Shown here: piece by piece, positions 657 through 42,841 of the stretch
Numbering within the stretch: position 1 is the stretch's first letter
How the letters are laid out: each line of letters starts with the position of its first letter
From: Dicentrarchus labrax
Taxonomy: Eukaryota
NCBI RefSeq assembly: GCF_905237075.1
Contig: NW_026136706.1
Coordinates: 24,783,935-24,847,934 of the forward strand
Direction: 5' to 3'
DNA length: 64,000 bases
Notes under the pieces: model-generated
Told to the model about the DNA's origin: nothing
The model's input: only the letters and a program-made list of their open reading frames with translations
Databases searched by the model: none
Made by a program: the position numbers and the translations under genes

Positions 657-798
657 CTGCTCTTCCTCACTTTTTATCACCGCTAGATCTGCTCCTCTGT
701 TTCTGCAGTCCTCTCTGGCTTTATCCCAGGTACCAGACTCAGTGGAGAAGAGATAACAGCGGTCCTTAAACATCTTCCATCCTTCAGAACAGTTTTCA
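657..798 (-). pseudogene. Lectin A exon 4 (CTLD part 1). It is 142 nt, against 143 nt in paralogs B and C, and a 1-nt deletion at the KTCPEGW codons breaks the frame when the canonical splice sites are used.
   Basis: Read from the reverse complement as gtgaaaac-tgttctgaagg, against gtgaaaacctgtcctgaagg in paralog B. With phase-1 entry from exon 3 this reaches a stop after about 33 codons. An alternative acceptor 17 nt downstream (ttctgaag|GATGG) restores the frame but deletes the first CTLD cysteine. Confidence 0.5.
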
Positions 799-1178
799 CT
801 GTAAGATAAACATACAGACACATTACAGACCAACAAGACTCATGTAAATATTTGTGAAGTTATCTCTGTAGATGTCATTTTCAATGAATGACCCTTCAAT
901 GCCCCTCAATATATGTTCATTTGGTTGGTGATTTTTCTGTCGATATAAGAGGATTTACTGTCACAATGTAGCGCTGTGCAGAGATAGAGGCCACAGTTGT
1001 GCCAGTGGTCCATCATAATATACTGTTTGATTTAGTTGTGATTAATGAAAGGTTACGTTTGAAAGCCTGAAACTGGTTTCTCATAAAATACATTAAAATA
1101 TCTTACCACAATGCAGGATGACTTAATCACTGGATTTCTGAGTAGCAAGTGAATCTAAGCACTTCATGCAAGGACTCA

Positions 1179-1355
1179 CCCAGTTTGGACTCTGAAGTCT
1201 TTCCAGCTCTTGAGTCATTTCAGTGATTCTGGCATTCAGCAGGTCTCTCTCTTCAGTCAGGGAACAGGACTTGTTGTCACTGGCCTGAAGACGCTCAGTC
1301 AGGTTGGCTTTGATAGAGGAGAGTTCTGCAGCTGAACGCTGAGCGGAGACATGGT
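1179..1355 (-). CDS. Lectin A exon 3: neck (…ANLTERLQASDNKSCSLTEERDLLNARITEMTQELERLQSPNW)
   Basis: The frame matches ORF 1123..1368(-). The exon is 177 nt, against 171 nt in paralog B. Confidence 0.7.
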
Positions 1356-1619
1356 CTGAAATAATCAAGAAACACTTCTCTGAAACACCAGATACCTACT
1401 GGAAGATCACAAACATAAATCAGTGTGGCTTTCAGCAGTAAAGTTATGCCACTAAAATTACAATGAAAATATTTCAGTCAGACAACTCACATTTGAAATG
1501 TTTATTACAGTACTATAGTCATTTAGATTTTGGCATCTGGGCTCCAACCTCATCATTCCCCACAGATATGTTTACATAGAAATATTGGGGAGTGATGAGC
1601 AAATACCTTATTCCTAGTC

Positions 1620-1855
1620 AGAGTCTACAGGTGGATGCTTGGGTGGTGGTGGGGCTTACAGAGCAGCAGCAGCAATACGGATGCAGGGCAACAGCGGCAT
1701 TGGCAGAGCAGAGGGAGAGCTGGGGAATTGTGCAGTTTAAATAGACCGCCAGATTGGAAGGGTGCGCTTGGTTAGTAATTATGGAGTGAGGCATGTCATG
1801 TGTGTATAGCAGTGCAGCTGGAGTTGACTGCCTGAACTAGCTGGCTTCATTCCAT
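1620..1855. repeat. Interspersed repeat, (CAG)n-containing, that ends …gactgcctgaactagct. A related copy lies at 9855-10205.
   Basis: An alignment of about 80 bp (…attatggagtgaggcatgtcatgtgtgtat…ttgactgcctgaactagct) plus flanking CAG/CTG runs. Confidence 0.5.
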
Positions 1856-2015
1856 ATTATGCTTTAAACAAACAAAATATAAATGAGAAAATCGAAAGTA
1901 AATCAAACAAAAATTTAAAAAAGTGACTGAAAAGTGAGTGATTTTCAGTGAAGAATTATCCTTCTATAATCACAATCCAGCCTGACTTTAATCTCTGGAT
2001 GTGATTTAGACTCAC

Positions 2016-2117
2016 AGTGGACACCGAGGCCGATGAGTCCAACCAGCAGGAGAACAGTGAGCAGACCCAGACAGAGAACAACAGATCCATGAAATCTCCT
2101 CTCTGAGCTCCTGGGAC
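2016..2117 (-). CDS. Lectin A exon 2: transmembrane segment (GPRSSERRFHGSVVLCLGLLTVLLLVGLIGLGVH)
   Basis: Codon positions were calibrated against ORF 1945..2307(-). Acceptor and GTGAGT donor are present. Confidence 0.7.
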
Positions 2118-2237
2118 CTGAACACAGAAAAGACCAGTGAATACAGTAAATCATACAACAGCAGTAATGACAGGTAATAATACACATTTCTGCAGAGCTC
2201 AGTCTGTCAGCCTCTCTGTCTGAATCATTATTCTTAC

Positions 2238-2307
2238 CTCTCTGATTCTGGGATGCTCTTAAGTCAGCACAGTCGTCATATTCATCAGTCACATAGATTT
2301 CCTCCAT
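2238..2307 (-). CDS. C-type lectin receptor paralog A (partial; the gene continues past the window start), exon 1: MEEIYVTDEYDDCADLRASQNQR
   Basis: The frame matches ORF 1945..2307(-). It is a mirror image of paralog B exon 1, forming a head-to-head inverted duplication. Confidence 0.65.
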
Positions 2308-3358
2308 CGCTCATAAGAGTGCCAAATGTTCTGCTGTGGGTCAGCTCTGCAGCACAAGCTACTCTTCACATTAATGATAAAACTGTAACTGGGTTCAGTT
2401 TTCCTTTATTTACAGGAAGTCACACCTCAAAAACATAGTTTCTGAGATAATCGCCTGTCATCTCACTTGAAACAGGAACAAGAACTAGACTATACTAGAA
2501 TGAATAAAATGTATACATAAATGTATCATCTTCATCACATCAAGTCCATGGACATGAGCTTTGTATTTGTAATCTTCCATCACCATGTTGAAAAAAGGAA
2601 GGTGGTTTCAGAAGACAGACCACTGATTCAGTGTTCCTGGATTGATGCGAGAAAATTCTTTGAATATAACAGTATTCTTTTGAGGATTGTGCCAAAACAG
2701 CTAAGAAATACTGTAATAACCTCATCAGTTCTCACTTCATTTTTCATTCTCTGACCTCAACCGAACTTTGTTGTCATGGCCACCGTCTTTCATTTACCAC
2801 AGTTAAGGCTAGGGTTAGTAGTAGTTGTAACTTGTTGTTGCATGAACTCGACCTCAGTCATAAATCTGTTGTTCAGTTATGTTAAATACAAACATTCAGT
2901 CTAAGAGTAAAAAAATAAGCAGCATTATGGTTCCCCCAAAACATCATTTCCTGATGCAGAGTAGTTGCAGAAGGCCAGAATTTGTAAAACATAAGATTGG
3001 TCATTAAGAAAAGAGTTTTATTACTTCTCATTTTATTGTTTGAATAGCATTTTATTTTATCTCACCACTGCTGTCAACTAAAGGACACACTTACAAAGAA
3101 ATAACATATTATATGTATATATTTAGATTTTTGTCTAAAGTGTACTACTAAATACTTTATTTTACTTACTTTATAATTTTCTTACACTTTGTTCGTTCCT
3201 GTTTCAAGTGATATGACGATTTCTCAGAAACTAGTTTGAGGTGTGACTTCCTGTAGATGAAGACAAACTGAACCCAGCTTCAGTTTTATCATTAATGTGA
3301 AGAGTAGCTTGTGCTGCAGAGCTGACCCACAGCAGAACATTTGGCATGCTTATGAGCG
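2308..3358. promoter_or_regulatory. Shared head-to-head intergenic region of lectin paralogs A and B. Proximal sequences of about 160 bp (2308-2470 and 3200-3358) are mirror images around a spacer of about 730 bp.
   Basis: The reverse complement of 2308-2470 aligns with 3200-3358. The divergent start codons sit at 2307 (-) and 3359 (+). Confidence 0.5.
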
Positions 3359-3428
3359 ATGGAGGAAATCTATGTGAATGTTAAATATGACGACTGTGCT
3401 GACTTAAGAGCATCCCAGAATCAGAGAG
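3359..3428 (+). CDS. C-type lectin receptor paralog B, exon 1: start codon and N-terminal cytoplasmic tail (MEEIYVNVKYDDCADLRASQNQR)
   Basis: ATG at 3359 has a good Kozak context (gcgATGG). The exon ends at a GTAAGA donor at 3429 and is homologous to exon 1 of paralogs A and C. An upstream out-of-frame ATG lies at 3354. Confidence 0.75.
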
Positions 3429-3548
3429 GTAAGAATAATGATTCAGACAGAGAGGCTGACAGACTGAGCTCTGCAGAAATGTGTATTATTACCTGTCATT
3501 AATGCTGTTGTATCATTTACTGTATTCACTGGTCTTTTCTGTGTTCAG

Positions 3549-3650
3549 GTCCCAAGAGCTCAGAGAGGAGATTTCATGGATCTGTTGTTCTCTGTCTGGG
3601 TCTGCTCACTGTTCTCCTGCTGGTTGGACTCATCGGCCTCAGTGTCCACT
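3549..3650 (+). CDS. Lectin B exon 2: transmembrane segment (GPKSSERRFHGSVVLCLGLLTVLLLVGLIGLSVH)
   Basis: Acceptor ttcag at 3544-3548 and donor GTGAGT at 3651. The exon encodes a hydrophobic stretch of about 23 aa, the signal-anchor typical of type II receptors. Phase is 1 at both ends. Confidence 0.8.
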
Positions 3651-3807
3651 GTGAGTCTAAATCACATTCAGAGATTAAAGTCAGGCTGGATTGTGATTAT
3701 AGGAGCATCATGTTTGTTCTATGTGTCCCTTTTTGCTTGTTCAGGATTTTTCTGATCTGTTTTATTTACTGTCTTGCTTCAATTTCCACAATTACATTTT
3801 GTTCCTT

Positions 3808-5128
3808 TTAACCCTCCTGTTATGTTCGGGTCAAACTGACACGAAGTTAAAAAAATCAAAAAAGAAAATAGTTAAAAGTATTTTTTCGGTATGCTTCTGC
3901 TTGGCTTAATAAGTGTAATCAACATATAAAATGAAAATTGATTATTTCACTTATTTGCAACCCCCCCTGCATGTTTATATTACATAAATACTGTTCGAGT
4001 CAATTTATCCCCGGTAGTCAAAGTGGAGGCTAAAAGGGGTCAGACACAAGTGTGTGCGTGTGTTTGTGCGATTGGGGTGAAATATGTCTCACAGTTGCAA
4101 AGAAACAAACAGTATATATGACACTTCTGAATAGAGATGGGATTTATGGCTCTTTGAAGGGATCCGGATCTTGAGGAGCTATTCCTTTCAAAGAGCCGTT
4201 CAAAAGGCTCATTTTTATATCTATTTATTTTTAAGAAGCTACCAGACTTGAAGGAAATATTATTTTGACAGATGTTACGCTTTGCTTTGCCGTTTGTTTC
4301 GTCCGAAAAGTGCATCCACATGCTGCTGCGCTTTCTTTGGCTCATTGTAGCTGCAGTATTGACACTCCGCACTCACCTGAAGGCAGTGCGCCACTGTGTC
4401 GGACAACTCAGATGACGTCATGCAAAATTTGCATATCAAATTAGCATCCATGTGTCTCAGTGGAGGAGCAAAGGAGGAGCTTGTGTGCGCATGCTGTATG
4501 CGTGACAGCGATTTCAAAAAAAAGAAAAACGAAATGCTCTCAACTGCGACTCGGTTCCCATCGTTCATGTTAAAGAGCTGTTCAATAGATTTGGTTCCCC
4601 TTTTAGCCTCCACTTTGACTACAGGGTCAAATTAAGCCAAGAAGAAGTTTCATACCGAAAAAATACTTTTAACAATTTTTAAAATATTTTGTATATTATA
4701 TTTTTTTAACTTTAAAGCGAGTCAATTTGACCCGAACAGAAGAGGTGTCTTATGTTAATTTATTAACATCACTCCATAAGAAAGAAAATTCAAAATGTAA
4801 AATAACATTTTTAAAAAAGTCATGTAAAACTATTGTATTTTATATGTAGGTCTTTCCAATGTACATTTAAAAAAGTTTTAACATGCATTTTATACGGAAA
4901 ACAAGTGAATTATCCTCATTAAACCATGATCTGTGAGAGGTAAAGAACATCATTGCACTAAATATTGAAATGGTTAGTATTGGAGTTAATAATGAGATAT
5001 AAACAGTGTTTATTGGGATATTTTAGTTTCTAACACTTTTGGATAATTAATTGGATAATTGCCCCAGGTCAAATTGACCCGGGAACATCATTGCTGTTCC
5101 TGAGAAACGAACATAACAGGAGGGTTAA
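3808..5128. mobile_element. piggyBac-like non-autonomous DNA transposon (about 1.3 kb) in intron 2 of lectin B. It has TTAA target duplications at 3808-3811 and 5125-5128 and perfect 17-bp TIRs CCCTCCTGTTATGTTCG…CGAACATAACAGGAGGG.
   Basis: The TTAA…TTAA flanks and the CCC…GGG termini are piggyBac-superfamily hallmarks. Internal GTCAAATTGACCC palindromic subterminal repeats are present and there is no intact transposase ORF. The homologous intron of paralog A is about 1 kb shorter. Confidence 0.6.
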
Positions 5129-5331
5129 GCAGTTGTGTTTCAGTATTTTGTAATTGCACACAAAAAAGCAAACACCCAAATCAAATTGAGTTTAGTGATT
5201 TCAGCATAATTCCAGCATTTATCCAATATCAACTAATTTAACAGGAGTATAATTTTCAAGACACAACAGCAGTGGCATGTTGTATCTGACAGCTACAGGT
5301 GTTTCAGAGAAGTGTCTGTTGTTTATTTCAG

Positions 5332-5502
5332 ACCATGTCTCCGCTCAGCGTTCAGCTGCAGAACTCTCCTCTATCAAAGCCAACCTGACTGAGCGTCTTC
5401 AGGCCATTGACAACAAGTCCTGTTCCCTGACTGAAGAGAGAGACCTGCTGAATGCCAGAATCACTGAAATGACTCAAGAGCTGGAAAGGCTGACTAGTTT
5501 GG
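5332..5502 (+). CDS. Lectin B exon 3: coiled-coil neck (…ANLTERLQAIDNKSCSLTEERDLLNARITEMTQELERLTSL)
   Basis: Acceptor tttcag before 5332 and donor GTGAGT at 5503. The frame matches ORF 5277..5549 and the sequence has heptad-like leucine spacing. Confidence 0.8.
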
Positions 5503-6418
5503 GTGAGTCCTTGTCTATAGAATCTACATTTACTTGTTGTCTAATCTAAAACATTTTTACTCAGAAATTCAGTGTTCACCCTGCAATGTGATTTAGTGGC
5601 CAGTTTCAGGTCAATATTCAATATCTCCTAAAAATAAAATATGATTATGGACCACTGTAAAACTGTGGCCTCTCTCTGTGCATGAAACTACATTGTAGAC
5701 AAGGACGAAGGCTCTCTCCTGTGTAAAATAAACACACAATAGGTTTGTGTCTGTTTGATTCAGATTCCCACCACACAGGTCAAAAGTTTAAAAATCAAGC
5801 AGAAAAATCTGAATTTGGAATCTCAAACTATCCAACAAGGATAGGAGTGTAGTTTGAGGAGCATTAAATGGTCACTGATGGAAGTTCAGGAGGTTCTGAG
5901 GGTAAGGAGCGATGAACTGATGGATGTGGAGGGGAGAAGGAAGAATATGATGTCACCTGTTAGGTTGGTCTGGGAGGACGTGCTGAAGGTGTGCAGAGGG
6001 AGACTCAGTGTGGGGATTCTGTCTCAGGCGTGTTTTCTACCAGAGCTGCTTACAGGCCCCAAGACGGTACCGAGAACGAGATGTGGGAGAGGTATGCACT
6101 GATTGAATAGGAAGGGATGAGGGGAAAGAGGCTGAAGGTATGTGGGTAGAGTTTAGCAGAGGGAGGGGTAGGGTAGGATGAGGTGAATGGAAGAAGGGAA
6201 AGAAAGGGAGGGTGGGTCCAGAAAACTGAAGCAAAGGAAGGAAGGAGTTGACCAGGTATAAGAAGGTTGCCAGGTGATAAGGAGTGGTTGAGGCGTGGCC
6301 CTGCTCCTGAACCTAAGTTATCTAATCACATTCATTTCACTGAAAAAGCTGATAACTTCACAAATACATTGACACAAGTCTTGTTGGTCTGTGATGTGTC
6401 TGTATGTTTATCTTACAG

Positions 6419-6561
6419 TGAAAACCTGTCCTGAAGGATGGAAGATGTTTAATAACACATGTTATCTCCTCTCCAATGAGTCTGGTACCTGGGATAAAGC
6501 CAGAGAGGACTGCAGAAACAGAGGAGCAGATCTGGTGGTGATAAACAGCGAGGAAGAGGAG
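6419..6561 (+). CDS. Lectin B exon 4: CTLD part 1 (VKTCPEGWKMFNNTCYLLSNESGTWDKAREDCRNRGADLVVINSEEEE)
   Basis: The long-form CTLD N-terminus carries the CPxGW…C…C…WxxAxxxC pattern. Acceptor cttacag at 6412-6418 and donor GTACAG at 6562, followed at once by an intronic (GT)n tract. Confidence 0.85.
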
Positions 6562-6564
6562 GTA

Positions 6565-6566
<2 letters not shown>

Positions 6567-6610
<44 letters not shown>
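6567..6610. repeat. (GT)22 microsatellite starting 6 nt into lectin B intron 4
   Basis: Direct read. The position is homologous to the (TG)n tract in paralog A. Confidence 0.95.
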
Positions 6611-6612
<2 letters not shown>

Positions 6613-6832: not shown

Positions 6833-6936
6833 ACGTTTCTCTCCAAGTTCATACCCTACAATGCTTGGATTGGTTTGACTGACAGAGAGGAGGAAGGGAC
6901 CTGGAAATGGATAGATGGAACTCCACTGACTCTGAC
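6833..6936 (+). CDS. Lectin B exon 5: CTLD part 2 (TFLSKFIPYNAWIGLTDREEEGTWKWIDGTPLTLT)
   Basis: Contains the WIGLTD…EGxWxWxDGTP CTLD core. Acceptor gaacag before 6833 and donor GTAAGG at 6937. Confidence 0.8.
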
Positions 6937-7957: not shown

Positions 7958-8108
7958 GTACTGGGGACTACATCAGCCTGATAATGGTGGTGGAGACCCA
8001 CTGTGGGGTGAAGAGGACTGTGCACATATCAGAACTGAGGTTTCCACTCACTGGAATGATCTGTCCTGTGAAGCTTCTCTGCGATGGATCTGTGAACAAA
8101 CAGCATAA
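7958..8108 (+). CDS. Lectin B exon 6: CTLD part 3 with QPD and WND motifs and stop codon (YWGLHQPDNGGGDPLWGEEDCAHIRTEVSTHWNDLSCEASLRWICEQTA*)
   Basis: QPD and WND are Ca2+/galactose-type carbohydrate-binding motifs, and a C…C disulfide pattern is present. TAA stop at 8106-8108. An alternative acceptor 3 nt upstream (7955) is equally possible. Confidence 0.8.
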
Positions 8109-9300: not shown

Positions 9301-10584
9301 TAGTTGCAATTTGCAACTTCACCACTAGATGCCACTAAATCTTACCCACTGGACCTTTCAGTGTGTCCATATCCAATTATTATCCAGGCTGATTCATACT
9401 GTCACAGACCGGCTGGGGGAAGGGGAAAAGAGGAGAGTACAACACATGAGTTTTTAACTAAATACTTATTTCACAAAAATATAAGGAAATAATGATAATA
9501 TAAAGTATGTCAATCAGTGCGTCAGTAGTGTTTGACGCGTTTGTATGAGTGACAGTGAAGTATAATGAATAAAGAAAATGAACACCAAGAAAAGTTAAAC
9601 CCAAACAACAAACCATATGCCCAGAAAGAGAGAGAGAAACTGACTGACTCCTCCAGCTTATAAAGCTGAGGAGCAGCAGGTGCTAATGCACTTCCTGCTT
9701 CCCTCCTAAAAGGGAAAGACAGCCCAAACAGGAAGTCAAGAGGGCTGTCACAATACAGTTGTGTTTTCACCAAATAAACTGACCATAAACATGATGAGAG
9801 TGCTGAGCTGATGACCTGTTTCTGGAAAAGAAATCCTTATTTTACATTACATTACCTTATTTATACCTTACATTACAGTCAGCTTGGAAAAACTTGTCTC
9901 TAGGGAAGTAGCGGTGTCCACCATGAGCTGGAAGCCTTCCTCGAGAGCTCCCCCCATGGCGCCCTCTTCTTCTGGAGGCTCTGTGTGCTGCTGCTGCTGC
10001 TGCTGACGTGTCTGCTGACGTGTCTGCTGTTTTTTTGGAGGAATCCTGTATTGTCTTTTTCTTCTGACACAACATGTAAGGTTGGTTGAGCGGTGAAGGT
10101 CAGTCCAAATGTATTTATTTCTAGTGATTATGGAGAGTGAGGTATGTCACATGTGTATGGAGGTGCGGCTCGAATTGACTGCCTGAACTAGCTCCATGTA
10201 TCAAAGCGAAAGAAAATCAACTCTGTTCTGGGCTAAGCCCCTTTTAAACTTGGGCCCCTGGCAGCCAACAATCCCTGTGGCCTGCTCGCCAACATCATCT
10301 GGCAAAAAGTATCCCCTGGGAGAACCCTCAACTCCTGTTTATATAGCCTGTGGCTCCTCCTACCCCAGGAAGTAATGATTAAGGAATCAATTAACTTATA
10401 GCACACATTTACCTGATAGCCAATAGATCATTTTAGAAGTCAACAGTGGAAAAAGTGTGACTGTAACAGTGACTGAGGTGGACAAGCACTCTATGTTGTG
10501 TCTTATTTAAGTTACAGGTCACGGGGCATCCCTGTGACACACTGCACTATCTATATATCAGTCTGTCTGTGTCTGACTGAACAT

Positions 10585-20847: not shown

Positions 20848-21153
20848 CTGAAACAACATGATCAAAACAGGACTCTCTAAGTGAATACTGGCAATATTAT
20901 ATATTATTATAAATACCCACACGTAACCACACACACACTTGAGCTGACTCTCTTTCTTCCACATGCATAGATACACATACACAAAATAACTTTCAATCCA
21001 CTAGTCAGTTAACATAGAGATAATGGATTCTGTTTTTCATTTTGTCAACCAAAGCTTGCAGCCATTTTAAATAAGCACAGCAACAATTGTCTTACAATAA
21101 TTATTATCAGGGTTGAAGGATATCTTAAAACAAGTAAAAGTTTTGGGACTTAC

Positions 21154-22040
21154 TCAAAGAGTGGATATTTTGCTGAACGCTGAGGTCGAGAGAACTCCAT
21201 TCGACCAAATAGAGCTCGGGTTCTCCTTTTAGTAGCTGTGATATCAGAGAATGATGATGCTTTGCTTGGACCAATCAGATTATCTGCAGACTTTGCAGAT
21301 GCACCGGAGAACATGGAAGTCCTTATTAACTGGTGCCTGGTAGGTTGAGAAGCTCCGAAGAGAGTGCCACAAGGAGCAGAAAAACCCTGAGCAACAATGG
21401 GAGCACCAATGGATGGAGGAGGAGGAGGACGAAGAGGAAGAGGAGGAGGTGAAGAAGGATCATATGAGAAAGACTGACCAACAATGGGAGAACCAATGGA
21501 TGGAAGAGGAGGAGGACGAGGAGGAGGTGAAGAAGGATCATATGAGAAAGACTGACCAACAATGGGAGCACCAATGGATGGAGGAGGAGGAGGAGGAGGA
21601 GGAGCATGTGGATGTTGAGAACGATCCATTGAGACAGCCTGAGCACCCATAGCCCACACATGTTTTTTAAATGAGTGCCGAGTAGCAGAGTGAGCAACAT
21701 AGAGAGGGAGAGGAGGAGGTTTGAAAAGATTAGATGGGACAGCTGGAGCACCAATGGAAGGTGGTGGAGGAGGAGGATGTGGAGAACTATCGATTGAGAG
21801 AGCCTGAGCACCCGTAGCACTAAGAGTAAGTGAGTGTTGCCGAATAGAGGACTGAGGAGGAGGTTGAGAAAGATTAGCTGGGACAGCTGGAGCACCAGAG
21901 GAAGGTGAAGAACGTCCGGATTTAAACACAAAACCACTTTGGCTAAAAGACAGTTCAGAGTCATGGCATAGGCTGGTTTCAGAGTGACACAGAGGAAGAG
22001 GAGAATCATAGATCATGTAGCACATGGACCAGGTCAAAAA
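21154..22040 (-). CDS. parp4: PARP4 exon 30: 887-nt proline-rich region with internal tandem repeats (…PPPPPSIGAPIVGQSFSYDPSSPPP…)
   Basis: Codon positions were calibrated against ORF 21150..22046(-). The apparent in-frame TAA is really part of a perfect GTAAGT donor (ttga|GTAAGT). The exon corresponds to the proline-rich tail of human PARP4. Confidence 0.7.
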
Positions 22041-22469
22041 CTGCAAAAGGAGAGATAAAAAGACAACGTTAAGTTAAAACTCCTCGCGTGCGCTTTTTAA
22101 ACACCACCACCAGTTCATTGTACTTAACACACAAAAATCAGTTTTTAGATTAATTCTACCAAGCAAACTTTTGAAGGGGCCTTTGTGAAGCACATGCAGG
22201 AGGAACATAGTCTTCATCAATGACTTTACACATGAACTCATTACAGATGAGTGGTGCAGTGTGCATTGTCCTGCTTAAAAATAATAGGTGTGATGCCACA
22301 CAAGGACGTGTGATGCTAATTTAGGACTGGTCAAGCTATTAAGTGTTATTTATTTGTTTATTTTTCCAGCTGTCCATGCATTCAAATGAGCAGCTTGAGC
22401 TAGAAATGCATTTGTTGTCCTTCCAAAAGAGCAAATATGCAGCTGTGGTTTGTGTGTGAAGGCACAAAC

Positions 22470-24370: not shown

Positions 24371-25749
24371 TATAGTTCTATGGAGTTAGATTTGTGTCTT
24401 TATTACATGCGAGAAAATAAATGACCTGAGAGAAGAAAAAAATTTTCAGAGAAAAAAAAATCACACTGATAGCAAAAAATAATAATTTTTGAGACTAAAA
24501 AAAGTTGAAAGAAAGTATTTTCTCATAGAACATAAAAAATTTAAAATTATTTCTGAGAAAAAAAATCTCTTTTAAAAATATATTTTTTGCTATCAGTGTG
24601 AAAACATTTTCTCCCAAAAAAATGTGTTTCTCTCAAAACGTTTTCCTCTCTCTCTCAAAACCTAAGTCTTTGCTCCGATGCAGTTTCTTGCTCTGTGTCA
24701 GGATTTTGCTCTCACTGTGAAAATAATGTCATGGGCGGGGCCACGTTCCTATTGGCCAGTCGGGTGAGAATCATCTTGGGAGTCGAACTGAATCACTACA
24801 CCATCGTCGATTCACCGGCATAGACGCGCTGCCTTAGTTGAGCGCGGAGACTCCAATGTTTGGGTAAGATGATGACACACACAACTCGATGGGCAGCTAG
24901 CTGAGCAAGTTAATCAAAATCATTCCCATCATAGGAACGACTGTGTAGCCCCAACAGGTTAGAGAGTAACAGATCAGAGGTATTAAAGGATGTTTAACTG
25001 GTTAGAGAGTAACAGATCAGAGGTATTAAAGGATGTTTAACTGGTTAGAGAGTAACAGATCAGAGGTATTAAAGGATGTTTAACAGGTTAGAGAGTAACA
25101 GATCAGAGGTATTAAAGGATGTTTAACTGGTTAGTAATGTGGAGTTCAGCTCAGCTAACATCACTGAAGATTAAACATTAAACAGGCTATCCTAAATGGA
25201 AGCTAGTTTGCCATTACTGATGTGTTTGTCAGATTGTCATGGACAAAGAATAGCACTCATATTCATGAACGTGTATTATATTATTAGCATGCAAATCACT
25301 AGTAAAGCTAATCGCTATTTAGCCATCATGCTAGGTAAACTTGCAAACTCACCTGGTTTATACTCTTTTTAAATCAAATGCCAAATGAATATGTTGATTT
25401 AGATAGTTTCACTCCTTATTAGTGAGTAGTGAGCTAGTTTCTACCCCAAAAAGAATTTTGAGAGAGATTTTTTTTTAATTGTAAAAGATTTTTGTTTTAA
25501 TTGTAAAAAATTCAAATTTATATTTTTTTATGTTCTATGAGAAAATACTTTCTCTCAAAACTTTTTTTAGTCTCAAATATTATTATTTTTTGCTATTGGT
25601 ATGAAAACTTCTCTCAAATATTTTTTTTCTCTCATAAAATGCTTTTTTTCTATCAGTGTGATAACTTTCTCTCTCAAACATTTTTGTTTCTCTCAGATTA
25701 TTTATTTTCTTGCACGTAATAAAGACACAAATCTAACTCCATATAGTTC
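24371..25749. mobile_element. Foldback-type DNA transposon in a PARP4 intron. It is flanked by an 8-bp direct repeat TATAGTTC (24371-24378 and 25742-25749) and has inverted arms of about 300 bp (24379-24700 and 25440-25741) with internal TTCTCTCAAA subrepeats. The centre holds a 43-bp minisatellite; a hAT-like assignment is tentative.
   Basis: The arms are reverse complements of each other. The 8-bp target-site duplication is consistent with a hAT-like element. No transposase is encoded. Confidence 0.5.
24958..25131. repeat. 43-bp minisatellite x4 (GGTTAGAGAGTAACAGATCAGAGGTATTAAAGGATGTTTAACT)
   Basis: Four near-perfect tandem copies lie inside the foldback element. Confidence 0.85.
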
Positions 25750-35040: not shown

Positions 35041-36036
35041 CTTAGAATAAATCAAAGAGAGAAGTCAGGTCATTTTGCTGAAATGCATTAGATGCAACAT
35101 ACCAGCCATGGAGCTGCCCTCCGCTGGCCACTAGACAGAATGCAGGTTTAAGGCATTTCCATATAAGCTTCACTTCACATACCTGAAAGCTCTGCCCACT
35201 TATATGTACTGTCAATGATTTGAATCTTATCTAAACTGCCAACCCTTAGTGTGTCTTTGAGAGTATTTATCAGTGTTTATCAAACACACCATTCTGAATT
35301 TACAGTGCTGCTTCAAAGTATGTAAACCTCCTGAGCATTTGGGAGTTTTCTTGTTTTTGCTCCAATTATTTCTTTATCTAATAACCTGTATTTCTTTTAT
35401 GAAATAACAGATGCATGTTTATCAGTTCCATATACTTTTTGAAGGAAATCAAGCATGTAGTGAAAAGACTAATATAAAAATAACTGGCAAAAGTTAGTGA
35501 ATACTGACCTGCATTGCACTGGTTTGATCAATTTTAATCAGAGCTGCCCAATCTCTTCCCTAAACATATCTCATTTCATTGGTTCATTCAGCCAACAACT
35601 TTGTGCCACCTGATATTTACATGCTGGTTTCAAGCTATCCAGCCCAGGGTTTACTAACTTTTGCCTCTACAAAAGTTTACAAAAAATATTGTTATATTAG
35701 TCTTTTCACTACACATTTCATTTCCTTACGTTAAAAGTATATGGAATTGATAAACAAACACCAGAAAACAACGAAGCACAGAAAGACTGATTTGGACATT
35801 GGTTACCTTGGTAACAGTCTAAAAGTTTTAAAGCATTCGGTTCAGCCTGAACGGCGGTTTCACTGTCATCCACAGTTTGATTCAATTTTGTCACAGCGTG
35901 AACACACCACAGCCTCAAAACCTGCTTAGATTTTCCACATCTATCATGTATGCACATGGCAGACCTTTCTGTATGTGTGTATCTGTCTTAGTGCGTGCAT
36001 CCATGTGTTTGTGCAGGGGTGTATGTTCTGTGTTAC

Positions 36037-41037: not shown

Positions 41038-41090
<53 letters not shown>
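41021..41090. repeat. (CA)n / CACCCA compound microsatellite in the long first intron of PARP4 (between the putative 5' leader and coding exon 1)
   Basis: Direct read. Confidence 0.9.

Positions 41091-42759: not shown

Positions 42760-42839
<80 letters not shown>
42760..42839. repeat. (TG)~39 microsatellite
   Basis: Direct read. Confidence 0.95.

Positions 42840-42841
<2 letters not shown>

Follow-up and report, generated by a model that had tools for sequence, protein, structure and literature searches.

The subject here is a 64,000-nucleotide stretch of the genome of the European sea bass, Dicentrarchus labrax (NCBI RefSeq assembly GCF_905237075.1, contig NW_026136706.1, positions 24,783,935 to 24,847,934, forward strand), which will be described as the window, and more particularly a 1,313-bp element found at positions 3812-5124 of that window. 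Three CD209-like lectin genes are present, here termed A, B, and C, with C, at 11.4-15.5 kb, more distant than A and B are from each other. Lectin A is inverted and head-to-head with lectin B (718-2479, minus strand, versus 3195-6500, plus strand), the two being approximately 94% identical in exons and adjacent intron, with start codons roughly 1 kb apart (2307 and 3359) and with gene A extending past the window start. Lectin B, as built by hand with all introns GT/AG, consists of exons 3359-3428, 3549-3650, 5332-5502, 6419-6561, 6833-6936, and 7958-8108, and its model product of 246 amino acids matches ‘CD209 antigen-like protein E’ of D. labrax at 100% identity. This exon model puts the element in intron 2, as the initial annotation had it, that is, between the transmembrane exon (exon 2) and the neck exon (exon 3), and the lectin B coding sequence is intact. 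Very probably the element is a non-autonomous DNA transposon of the piggyBac superfamily, one which inserted at, and in the process duplicated, a TTAA of that intron.

The boundaries are the most readily appreciated evidence. TTAA followed by CCCTCCTGTTATGTTCG is read directly at 3808-3828, and the exact reverse complement of the same is found at 5108-5128, such that, with the TTAA counted, the inverted repeat is complementary over 21 of 21 positions. A repeat finder likewise returns a 21-nt pair at 100% complementarity, and a search with the 17-nt terminal inverted repeat (TIR), up to three mismatches allowed, recovers only the two terminal sites in 64 kb, versus 0.06 expected. The perfect 17-bp TIRs, each flanked by TTAA, that had been described previously are confirmed. 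The TIR starts CCCTCC, giving CCC...GGG tips. When all 57 x 66 candidate pairs of TTAA-C[CAT][CAT] and [GAT][GAT]G-TTAA sites with a spacing of 60-8000 bp are scanned across the window, the 3808/5128 pair is the only one with complementary ends. By chance, inverted repeats of 21 bp without a mismatch, and no more than 5 kb apart, would be expected about 7e-5 times in the window (i.e., about 3.2e8 position pairs x 4^-21). From left to right, and with LE and RE standing for the element's left end and right end, ORF for open reading frame, and base pairs (bp) of an end counted inward from its tip, the features of the intron are as follows.

3651-5331, plus strand: host intron 2 of CD209-like lectin B, between exon 2 (3549-3650) and exon 3 (5332-5502), with GT...AG intact
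3808-3811, unstranded: left TTAA target-site duplication (TSD), read directly (...cctttTAA, then CCCTCCTGTTATGTTCG), its flank aligning with paralog A through the TTAA
3812-3828, plus strand: LE TIR, CCCTCCTGTTATGTTCG, complementary at 17 of 17 positions to 5108-5124 and starting CCCTC
3828-3842, plus strand: LE internal palindromic repeat, GGGTCAAACTGACAC, element bp 17-31, abutting the tip, with TGAC at bp 26
3843-4039, plus strand: left arm, AT-rich (34% GC over 3812-4039), delimited by inverted-repeat pairs and blastn
4040-4131, unstranded: unassigned stretch of the core, TG-rich in part, separating the left arm from the hAT-like terminus
4132-4239, plus strand: hAT-like terminal segment, with terminus TAGAGATGGG at 4132, from its match to Logan contig L029
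4217-4339, minus strand: decayed BED zinc-finger remnant inside ORF 4040-4372 (minus), from an exhaustive HMMER search
4373-4596, unstranded: GC-richer core (42.5% GC for 4040-4596 versus about 30% in the arms), from direct reading and GC content
4597-4754, minus strand: inverted, diverged copy of the left arm, in blocks of 76-97% identity
4755-4758, unstranded: internal TTAA beside a decayed pseudo-end
4759-5065, unstranded: AT-rich right region (29% GC over 4753-5124), without recognizable content by GC or protein search
5066-5080, minus strand: RE internal palindromic repeat, GGGTCAATTTGACCT as read from the right tip, element bp 45-59, with TGAC at bp 54
5081-5107, minus strand: RE spacer of 27 nt, with duplicate tip bases ATGTTC at 5083-5088, from alignment to the LE
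5108-5124, minus strand: RE TIR, CGAACATAACAGGAGGG on the plus strand, complement of the left TIR
5125-5128, unstranded: right TTAA target-site duplication, read directly (CGAACATAACAGGAGGG, then TTAAgcag)

Tips of this sort, usually CCC...GGG, are what is expected of the piggyBac superfamily. Its TIRs are 12-19 bp long with C as first base, following the loose consensus C[C/A/T][C/A/T][T/G/A][T/A/G][T/G/A] (PMC5381638), and four 5' motifs are common among them, CCCTC included (PMC10813416). The sea bass element, for its part, displays a 4-bp TTAA TSD, a 17-bp TIR beginning with C, and asymmetric subterminal repeats. Among related fish hosts, tetraodontiform piggyBac elements (Mola, Takifugu) display TTAA together with CCCTC TIRs of 15-17 bp (PMC10813416). 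The percomorph elements listed, such as PiggyBac-1_Mmol, PiggyBac-2_Tbim, PiggyBac-1_Toce, and PiggyBac-2_Trub, for the most part are defective, at about 2 kb, and have kept partial transposase ORFs, whereas the sea bass element has none, and their TIRs are compared here over the first 5 nt only (PMC10813416).

What lies inside of the tips is, as judged from the letters of the two ends, the strongest new evidence for a piggyBac assignment. At the LE a 16/17-bp tip is followed directly, from bp 17, by the palindrome GGGTCAAACTGAC, while at the RE the same tip is followed by a spacer of 27 nt and only then, from bp 45, by the palindrome. The RE over bp 37-57 also repeats LE bp 11-29, with a 2-nt indel. 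That the element holds multiple internal palindromic subrepeats had been claimed earlier, and copies are indeed strongly enriched within it, though the exact motif, GTCAAATTGACCC, occurs just once, at 5068-5080. The other copies either carry one to two mismatches (3828-3842, 4626-4638, 4719-4733) or are weaker still (3996-4011). Allowing two or fewer mismatches, there are eight strand-hits in the window versus 2.06 expected, seven of the eight inside the element.

The system which this arrangement resembles is the piggyBac of the moth Trichoplusia ni (IFP2; LE35/RE63). There the TIR is 13 bp long, and a palindrome-like repeat of 19 bp begins after a further 3 bp at the LE and a further 31 bp at the RE (PMC5381638), placing the start of that repeat at bp 17 and bp 45, respectively. 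The core of the T. ni transposase binds bp 1-16, with bp 17-33 bound by a dimer of its C-terminal cysteine-rich domains (CRDs); RE bp 34-63 is a near repeat of LE bp 7-35, and an asymmetric LE/RE pair is required by the moth element in cells (PMC7351741). Both elements thus duplicate TTAA, have CCCT...AGGG tips, and possess a tip of roughly 16 bp with a palindromic repeat starting from bp 17 (LE) and bp 45 (RE), i.e., with the same LE-to-RE shift of 28 bp. Nearly matching is the position of TGAC, at bp 27/55 (LE/RE) in T. ni versus 26/54 in sea bass. Both elements also re-use an LE block in the RE (34-63 repeating 7-35, with a 1-nt indel, versus 37-57 and 11-29 in sea bass), and share the palindrome core AAATTGAC, with 10 of 11 positions equal between GTCAAATTGAC (sea bass) and GTAAAATTGAC (T. 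ni). The T. ni RE63 sequence used for these end comparisons agrees with the descriptions in PMC7351741. There are differences, however. Past bp 1-4 the tips have little in common (ATG/ATA, and TC, around bp 11-16), the T. ni palindrome is 19 bp rather than 15 bp, with that of the sea bass 1 bp nearer to the tip, and the sea bass element lacks a transposase gene, is unrelated over its interior, and is hosted by a fish instead of a moth.

The likeness is to the moth design specifically and not to that of piggyBat, from the bat Myotis lucifugus, whose ends have another organization and are recognized by a CRD of a different structure (PMC11707139). Like the sea bass element, piggyBat belongs to the piggyBac superfamily, comes from a vertebrate, and targets TTAA, but it carries GCGGGA motifs, and its palindrome is a different one and confined to the left end (PMC11707139). 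The bp-17/bp-45 asymmetry accordingly is treated here as an IFP2-type trait rather than as one defining the superfamily, as piggyBat lacks it. The moth-type end plan also sets the orientation of the element, its left (5') end being the window-left one.

The interior is composite. No ORF within the element exceeds 118 codons, and no piggyBac transposase domain and no significant Pfam family is seen among the element's ORFs, consistent with the earlier claim of an absence of a transposase ORF; the whole window is also without an Rfam match, and it contains no autonomous relative coding for a DDD piggyBac transposase (DDE_Tnp_1_7 plus CRD). The short ORFs of 4040-4613 had been described as simply element-internal, and they are present on both strands, but the ORF at 4040-4372 (minus) is non-random. 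It has 12 relatives in the exhaustive HMMER search, with nothing significant in Pfam for the ORF itself. Eight of the nine relatives that were checked possess zf-BED, several of them in multiple copies, with the ninth lacking a Pfam match, and two of those eight carry as well a hAT dimerization domain. The remnant is 51% identical over 41 amino acids to a BED finger (KRSSMWMHFSDETNGKAKRNIC / KRSSVWNHFPDNENGKAKCGYC), with the first Cys now Arg and the His pair lost. The ORFs are not all meaningless, that is, as they include this hAT-derived fragment with its BED-finger remnant. The ORF at 4275-4613 (minus), by contrast with its neighbor, has no homologue by protein search.

Further indication of hAT ancestry comes from 4132-4239, which is 79% identical over 120 aligned columns to positions 71-190 of the above-mentioned 5.7-kb Logan contig (run ERR4790880), to which one of the HMMER relatives led. 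Both copies stop at ...CCCATCTCTA and diverge past that point, hence the reading of 4132 as a hAT-type terminus. Elements of the hAT type end in YARNG termini, found as an inverted pair, and are flanked by an 8-bp TSD, and TAGAGATGGG presumably fits that terminal pattern. The segment includes a small hairpin (4148-4162 / 4183-4197). Neither a partner hAT terminus nor an 8-bp duplication is found in the window, so a complete nested hAT insertion is ruled out and the piece instead is a fragment. As a separate observation, the sharing of this terminal segment between the window and the ERR4790880 contig points to a hAT family that is present in more than one fish data set. The adjoining core segment, 4040-4131, has no match elsewhere in the window nor in the other percomorph lectin loci compared. 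On the other side, at about 4415-4440, a perfect cAMP-response-element (CRE) palindrome, TGACGTCA, is followed directly by an octamer-containing palindrome, ATGCAAAATTTGCAT. Read in minus orientation, the pair precedes the BED ATG by approximately 80 bp. Going by its sequence, 4373-4596 may be a former hAT 5' region; the palindromes themselves have the look of a former promoter that was brought into the lectin intron.

Flanking these hAT-derived sequences are the left arm and its inverted copy. The inverted copy lacks roughly 95 nt of the left arm (3910-4004), where that arm has a further copy of the motif (TGTTCGAGTCAATTTATCCC, 3993-4012). It ends in a decayed LE-type pseudo-end (4745->4705, aligned to LE bp 5-40). 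There the palindrome sits directly against the tip, as at the LE, but the CCCT tip has been lost. The TTAA found alongside would be an old target site. This internal, dead left-type end suggests that the family either arose from or absorbed a symmetric left/left foldback. To the right, 4759-5065 has no homologue in a six-frame protein search. Much of the interior, then, would represent filler or rearrangement acquired over the history of the family. RNA folding of the element pairs tips and arms; this was done without a shuffle control and no claim is drawn from it.

How well does ‘MITE’, that is, miniature inverted-repeat transposable element, describe such a thing? In the strict sense MITEs usually are under about 800 bp, homogeneous, and of high copy number. 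Human MER85 and MER75, along with the MITEs associated with Xenopus TxpB, are short and non-coding, possess piggyBac-type TIRs and TTAA duplications, and are mobilized in trans. The sea bass element is non-coding and TTAA/TIR-bounded, consistent with the label as originally applied, but at 1,313 bp and with a composite interior it departs from a MITE's size and homogeneity, and it differs from MER85/MER75 and the TxpB-associated MITEs as these are shorter and high-copy. It is a composite non-autonomous transposon rather than a typical MITE.

Weighing against a piggyBac assignment are a number of points. Only one copy has been examined, and no second copy is found in the 64-kb window, whether by 17-mer TIR search or blastn, nor in JGI metagenomes, GTDB genomes, or by three protein-level routes. 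In JGI metagenomes the TIR 17-mer has 19 matches, with flanks lacking TTAA and with no shared downstream sequence, and in GTDB genomes it is found at nine loci (10 hits), all in bacterial records; both collections are, however, uninformative as to copies because they hold no fish DNA. At the protein level, a 695-amino-acid concatenation of stop-free six-frame segments from the arms and right region has no match even at E<=10, and exact look-up of 10 element ORFs in the protein collection finds none present. The TIR string is absent from the literature searched, and no paper was found linking piggyBac to sea bass specifically. Positions 5-6 of the TIR (CC) also lie outside of the loose 6-nt consensus of PMC5381638, and the right-side match to paralog A reaches just 3 nt past the TTAA. 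A single copy, in combination with A and B intron cores that align poorly, is what might be anticipated were this no transposon at all but instead an inverted duplication of local origin, or an inverted repeat that arose by chance in a fast-evolving intron. The precise ending of the repeat at TTAA on both sides, the CCC/GGG tips with subterminal motifs at piggyBac positions, and the minute chance expectation for a perfect 21-bp repeat, as noted above, make such an explanation highly improbable. To the same small degree might one credit Kolobok (T2-type) MITE status, Kolobok being the other of the two eukaryotic superfamilies which duplicate TTAA (PMC6004289, PMC9587614). Kolobok elements are reported from chordates and, in fish, correlate with genome size. 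As with the T2-MITEs of Xenopus (Xmix, etc.), they have many MITE derivatives (PMC6004289). The TSD therefore fits, but Kolobok termini are 5'-RR...YY-3', i.e., AG or AGGRR in Xenopus (PMC6004289, PMC9587614), while those of the sea bass element are 5'-CC...GG-3' and its ends follow the piggyBac LE/RE plan. It is over the termini that Kolobok fails.

Other explanations accept the transposon sequences and question instead the unit. From one perspective there were two events, an older, symmetric LE/LE foldback MITE (3812-4754, with TTAAs at 3808 and 4755) and a separate, RE-bearing remnant (4759-5124), in which case the 1.3-kb stretch never moved as a whole. The LE-type pseudo-end with its adjoining TTAA is as this would predict, and the 76-97% identity of the arms points to an old internal duplication. 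The right-hand piece, however, is without a left end at 4759, and the left TTAA is set within true lectin intron sequence, such that extra deletions would be needed, which renders a two-event origin less parsimonious. The pseudo-end furthermore has lost its CCCT tip, whereas the outer tips are perfect and form just that LE/RE pair which piggyBac needs in cells. A two-event history accordingly is unlikely, if still less so than the two explanations just considered. Nearly without probability is the idea that this is basically a hAT-family element. It does possess a hAT-like terminus, at 4132, and the BED remnant is the only protein-like remnant inside, but there is a single terminus with neither partner TIR nor 8-bp duplication, and the hAT piece spans at most about 4132-4596, which is far inside of the TTAA/CCC boundaries. 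The piggyBac-like, TTAA-flanked, non-autonomous reading with which the initial annotation began is, on the other hand, supported by the CCC...GGG tips, by the layout of the ends, and by position within the host gene.

When did this piggyBac-type element insert? Intron 2 of paralog A was previously said to be without the element, and no trace of it is found there. High A/B identity ends 50 nt into intron 2 and resumes 35 nt before exon 3, a sharp drop within the intron which suggests that gene conversion has been limited to exons. The left-flank alignment between A and B scores 27, versus 16.5 +/- 2.6 (maximum 26) over 300 shuffles. It passes through TTAA plus GCA and then ends, with A keeping an uninterrupted TTAA at the aligned position (A site, TTTAAAGCA; reconstructed B site, TTTTAAGCA). 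That the alignment stops past the TTAA is attributable to A carrying a different repeat in the core of its intron 2 (1773-1842), one that is 83% identical over 72 aligned columns to 10122-10193. As this A repeat lies just beyond the position which aligns with the B insertion site, the two introns were remodeled independently.

Insertion following the A/B duplication, as originally proposed, is plausible from these alignments since an empty TTAA in A fits, but the intron cores align weakly and excision leaves no footprint. That is, piggyBac excision restores TTAA exactly, and an empty site in A for that reason does not separate ‘never inserted’ from ‘excised’. A/B gene conversion, in addition, blurs any clock. 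The TIRs and TSDs, together 42 bp, carry no changes, but as only about 1.2 would be expected given the age of the A/B duplication (about 2.75% per lineage), their perfection is weak evidence of youth. A comparison with related species, as had been suggested, was run using the orthologous lectin clusters of four other percomorphs, Chaetodon, Trachinotus, Enoplosus, and Siniperca (about 100 kb), and these are without the element, with no TIR-like site and no palindrome found there either.

As to how the element might move, by analogy with piggyBac of T. ni it may be viewed as a passenger. Encoding no transposase, it would depend on a piggyBac-family transposase supplied from elsewhere in the genome. 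The 16-17-bp tips would be contacted by the core domains of such a transposase, and its C-terminal CRDs, as a dimer, would contact the palindrome GGGTCAAATTGACCC, whose offset, bp 17 on the left versus bp 45 on the right, would let a left/right pair synapse. Excision then would restore a single TTAA. With tips and internal repeats intact at both ends, and forming an asymmetric LE/RE pair, the element should be formally mobilizable, presumably as one unit. If the family did come from a left/left foldback, then present mobility would rest on the outer right end.

Other aspects of the window may be noted. The CD209-like lectin cluster adjoins PARP4 in Chaetodon auriga, Trachinotus anak, and Enoplosus armatus, with the lectin genes there again found as tandem or inverted pairs, and the arrangement therefore predates sea bass. 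In lectin B a (TG)n microsatellite (6563-6612) directly follows the exon 4 donor. Probably another DNA-transposon remnant is the 1.36-kb structure at 24379-25743, whose inverted arms are long but imperfect (135 nt at 81%, in addition to other blocks) and whose internal repeats are A/T-rich. At 35416-35756 there is a compact, MITE-like foldback of 341 bp, in which the inverted repeats are nested and measure 24 nt (96%), 41 nt (88%), and 32 nt (78%). Long (CA)n and (TG)n arrays (41042-41090 and 42760-42840), separated by about 1.7 kb, make up a trivial inverted repeat. Lastly, an open frame of 307 codons (21153-22073, minus strand) is rich in proline and includes repeated units of PPPPPSIGAPIV. 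It has no match in Pfam and may represent one exon from a proline-rich gene.

A single intronic insertion as such matters little: The lectin coding sequence is intact, nothing suggests a function, and the element is an ordinary intronic genomic parasite of an already known, piggyBac type rather than a new kind of system. A bolder idea, and one that is to be considered doubtful, is that European sea bass carry a recently or currently active, moth (IFP2)-type piggyBac lineage, with a transposase whose pB-type CRD reads GGGTCAAATTGACCC, and with this element a still-mobilizable passenger, as its tips, internal repeats, and TTAAs are all intact. If true, then the bp-17/bp-45 geometry common to moth and fish would represent either deep conservation of transpososome layout or horizontal transfer, and would point to a native vertebrate piggyBac system that is usable as a tool. 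Were the insertion polymorphic, it would serve as a marker with which to date or trace both the head-to-head duplication of the lectins and sea bass lineages. The element also shows how non-autonomous elements can accrete foreign pieces, here a hAT BED-finger fragment. It is, in particular, a clean example of the asymmetric left/right end plan of moth piggyBac as seen also with a fish element, and its 60-bp ends are a precise handle for finding the sea bass family along with any active transposase.

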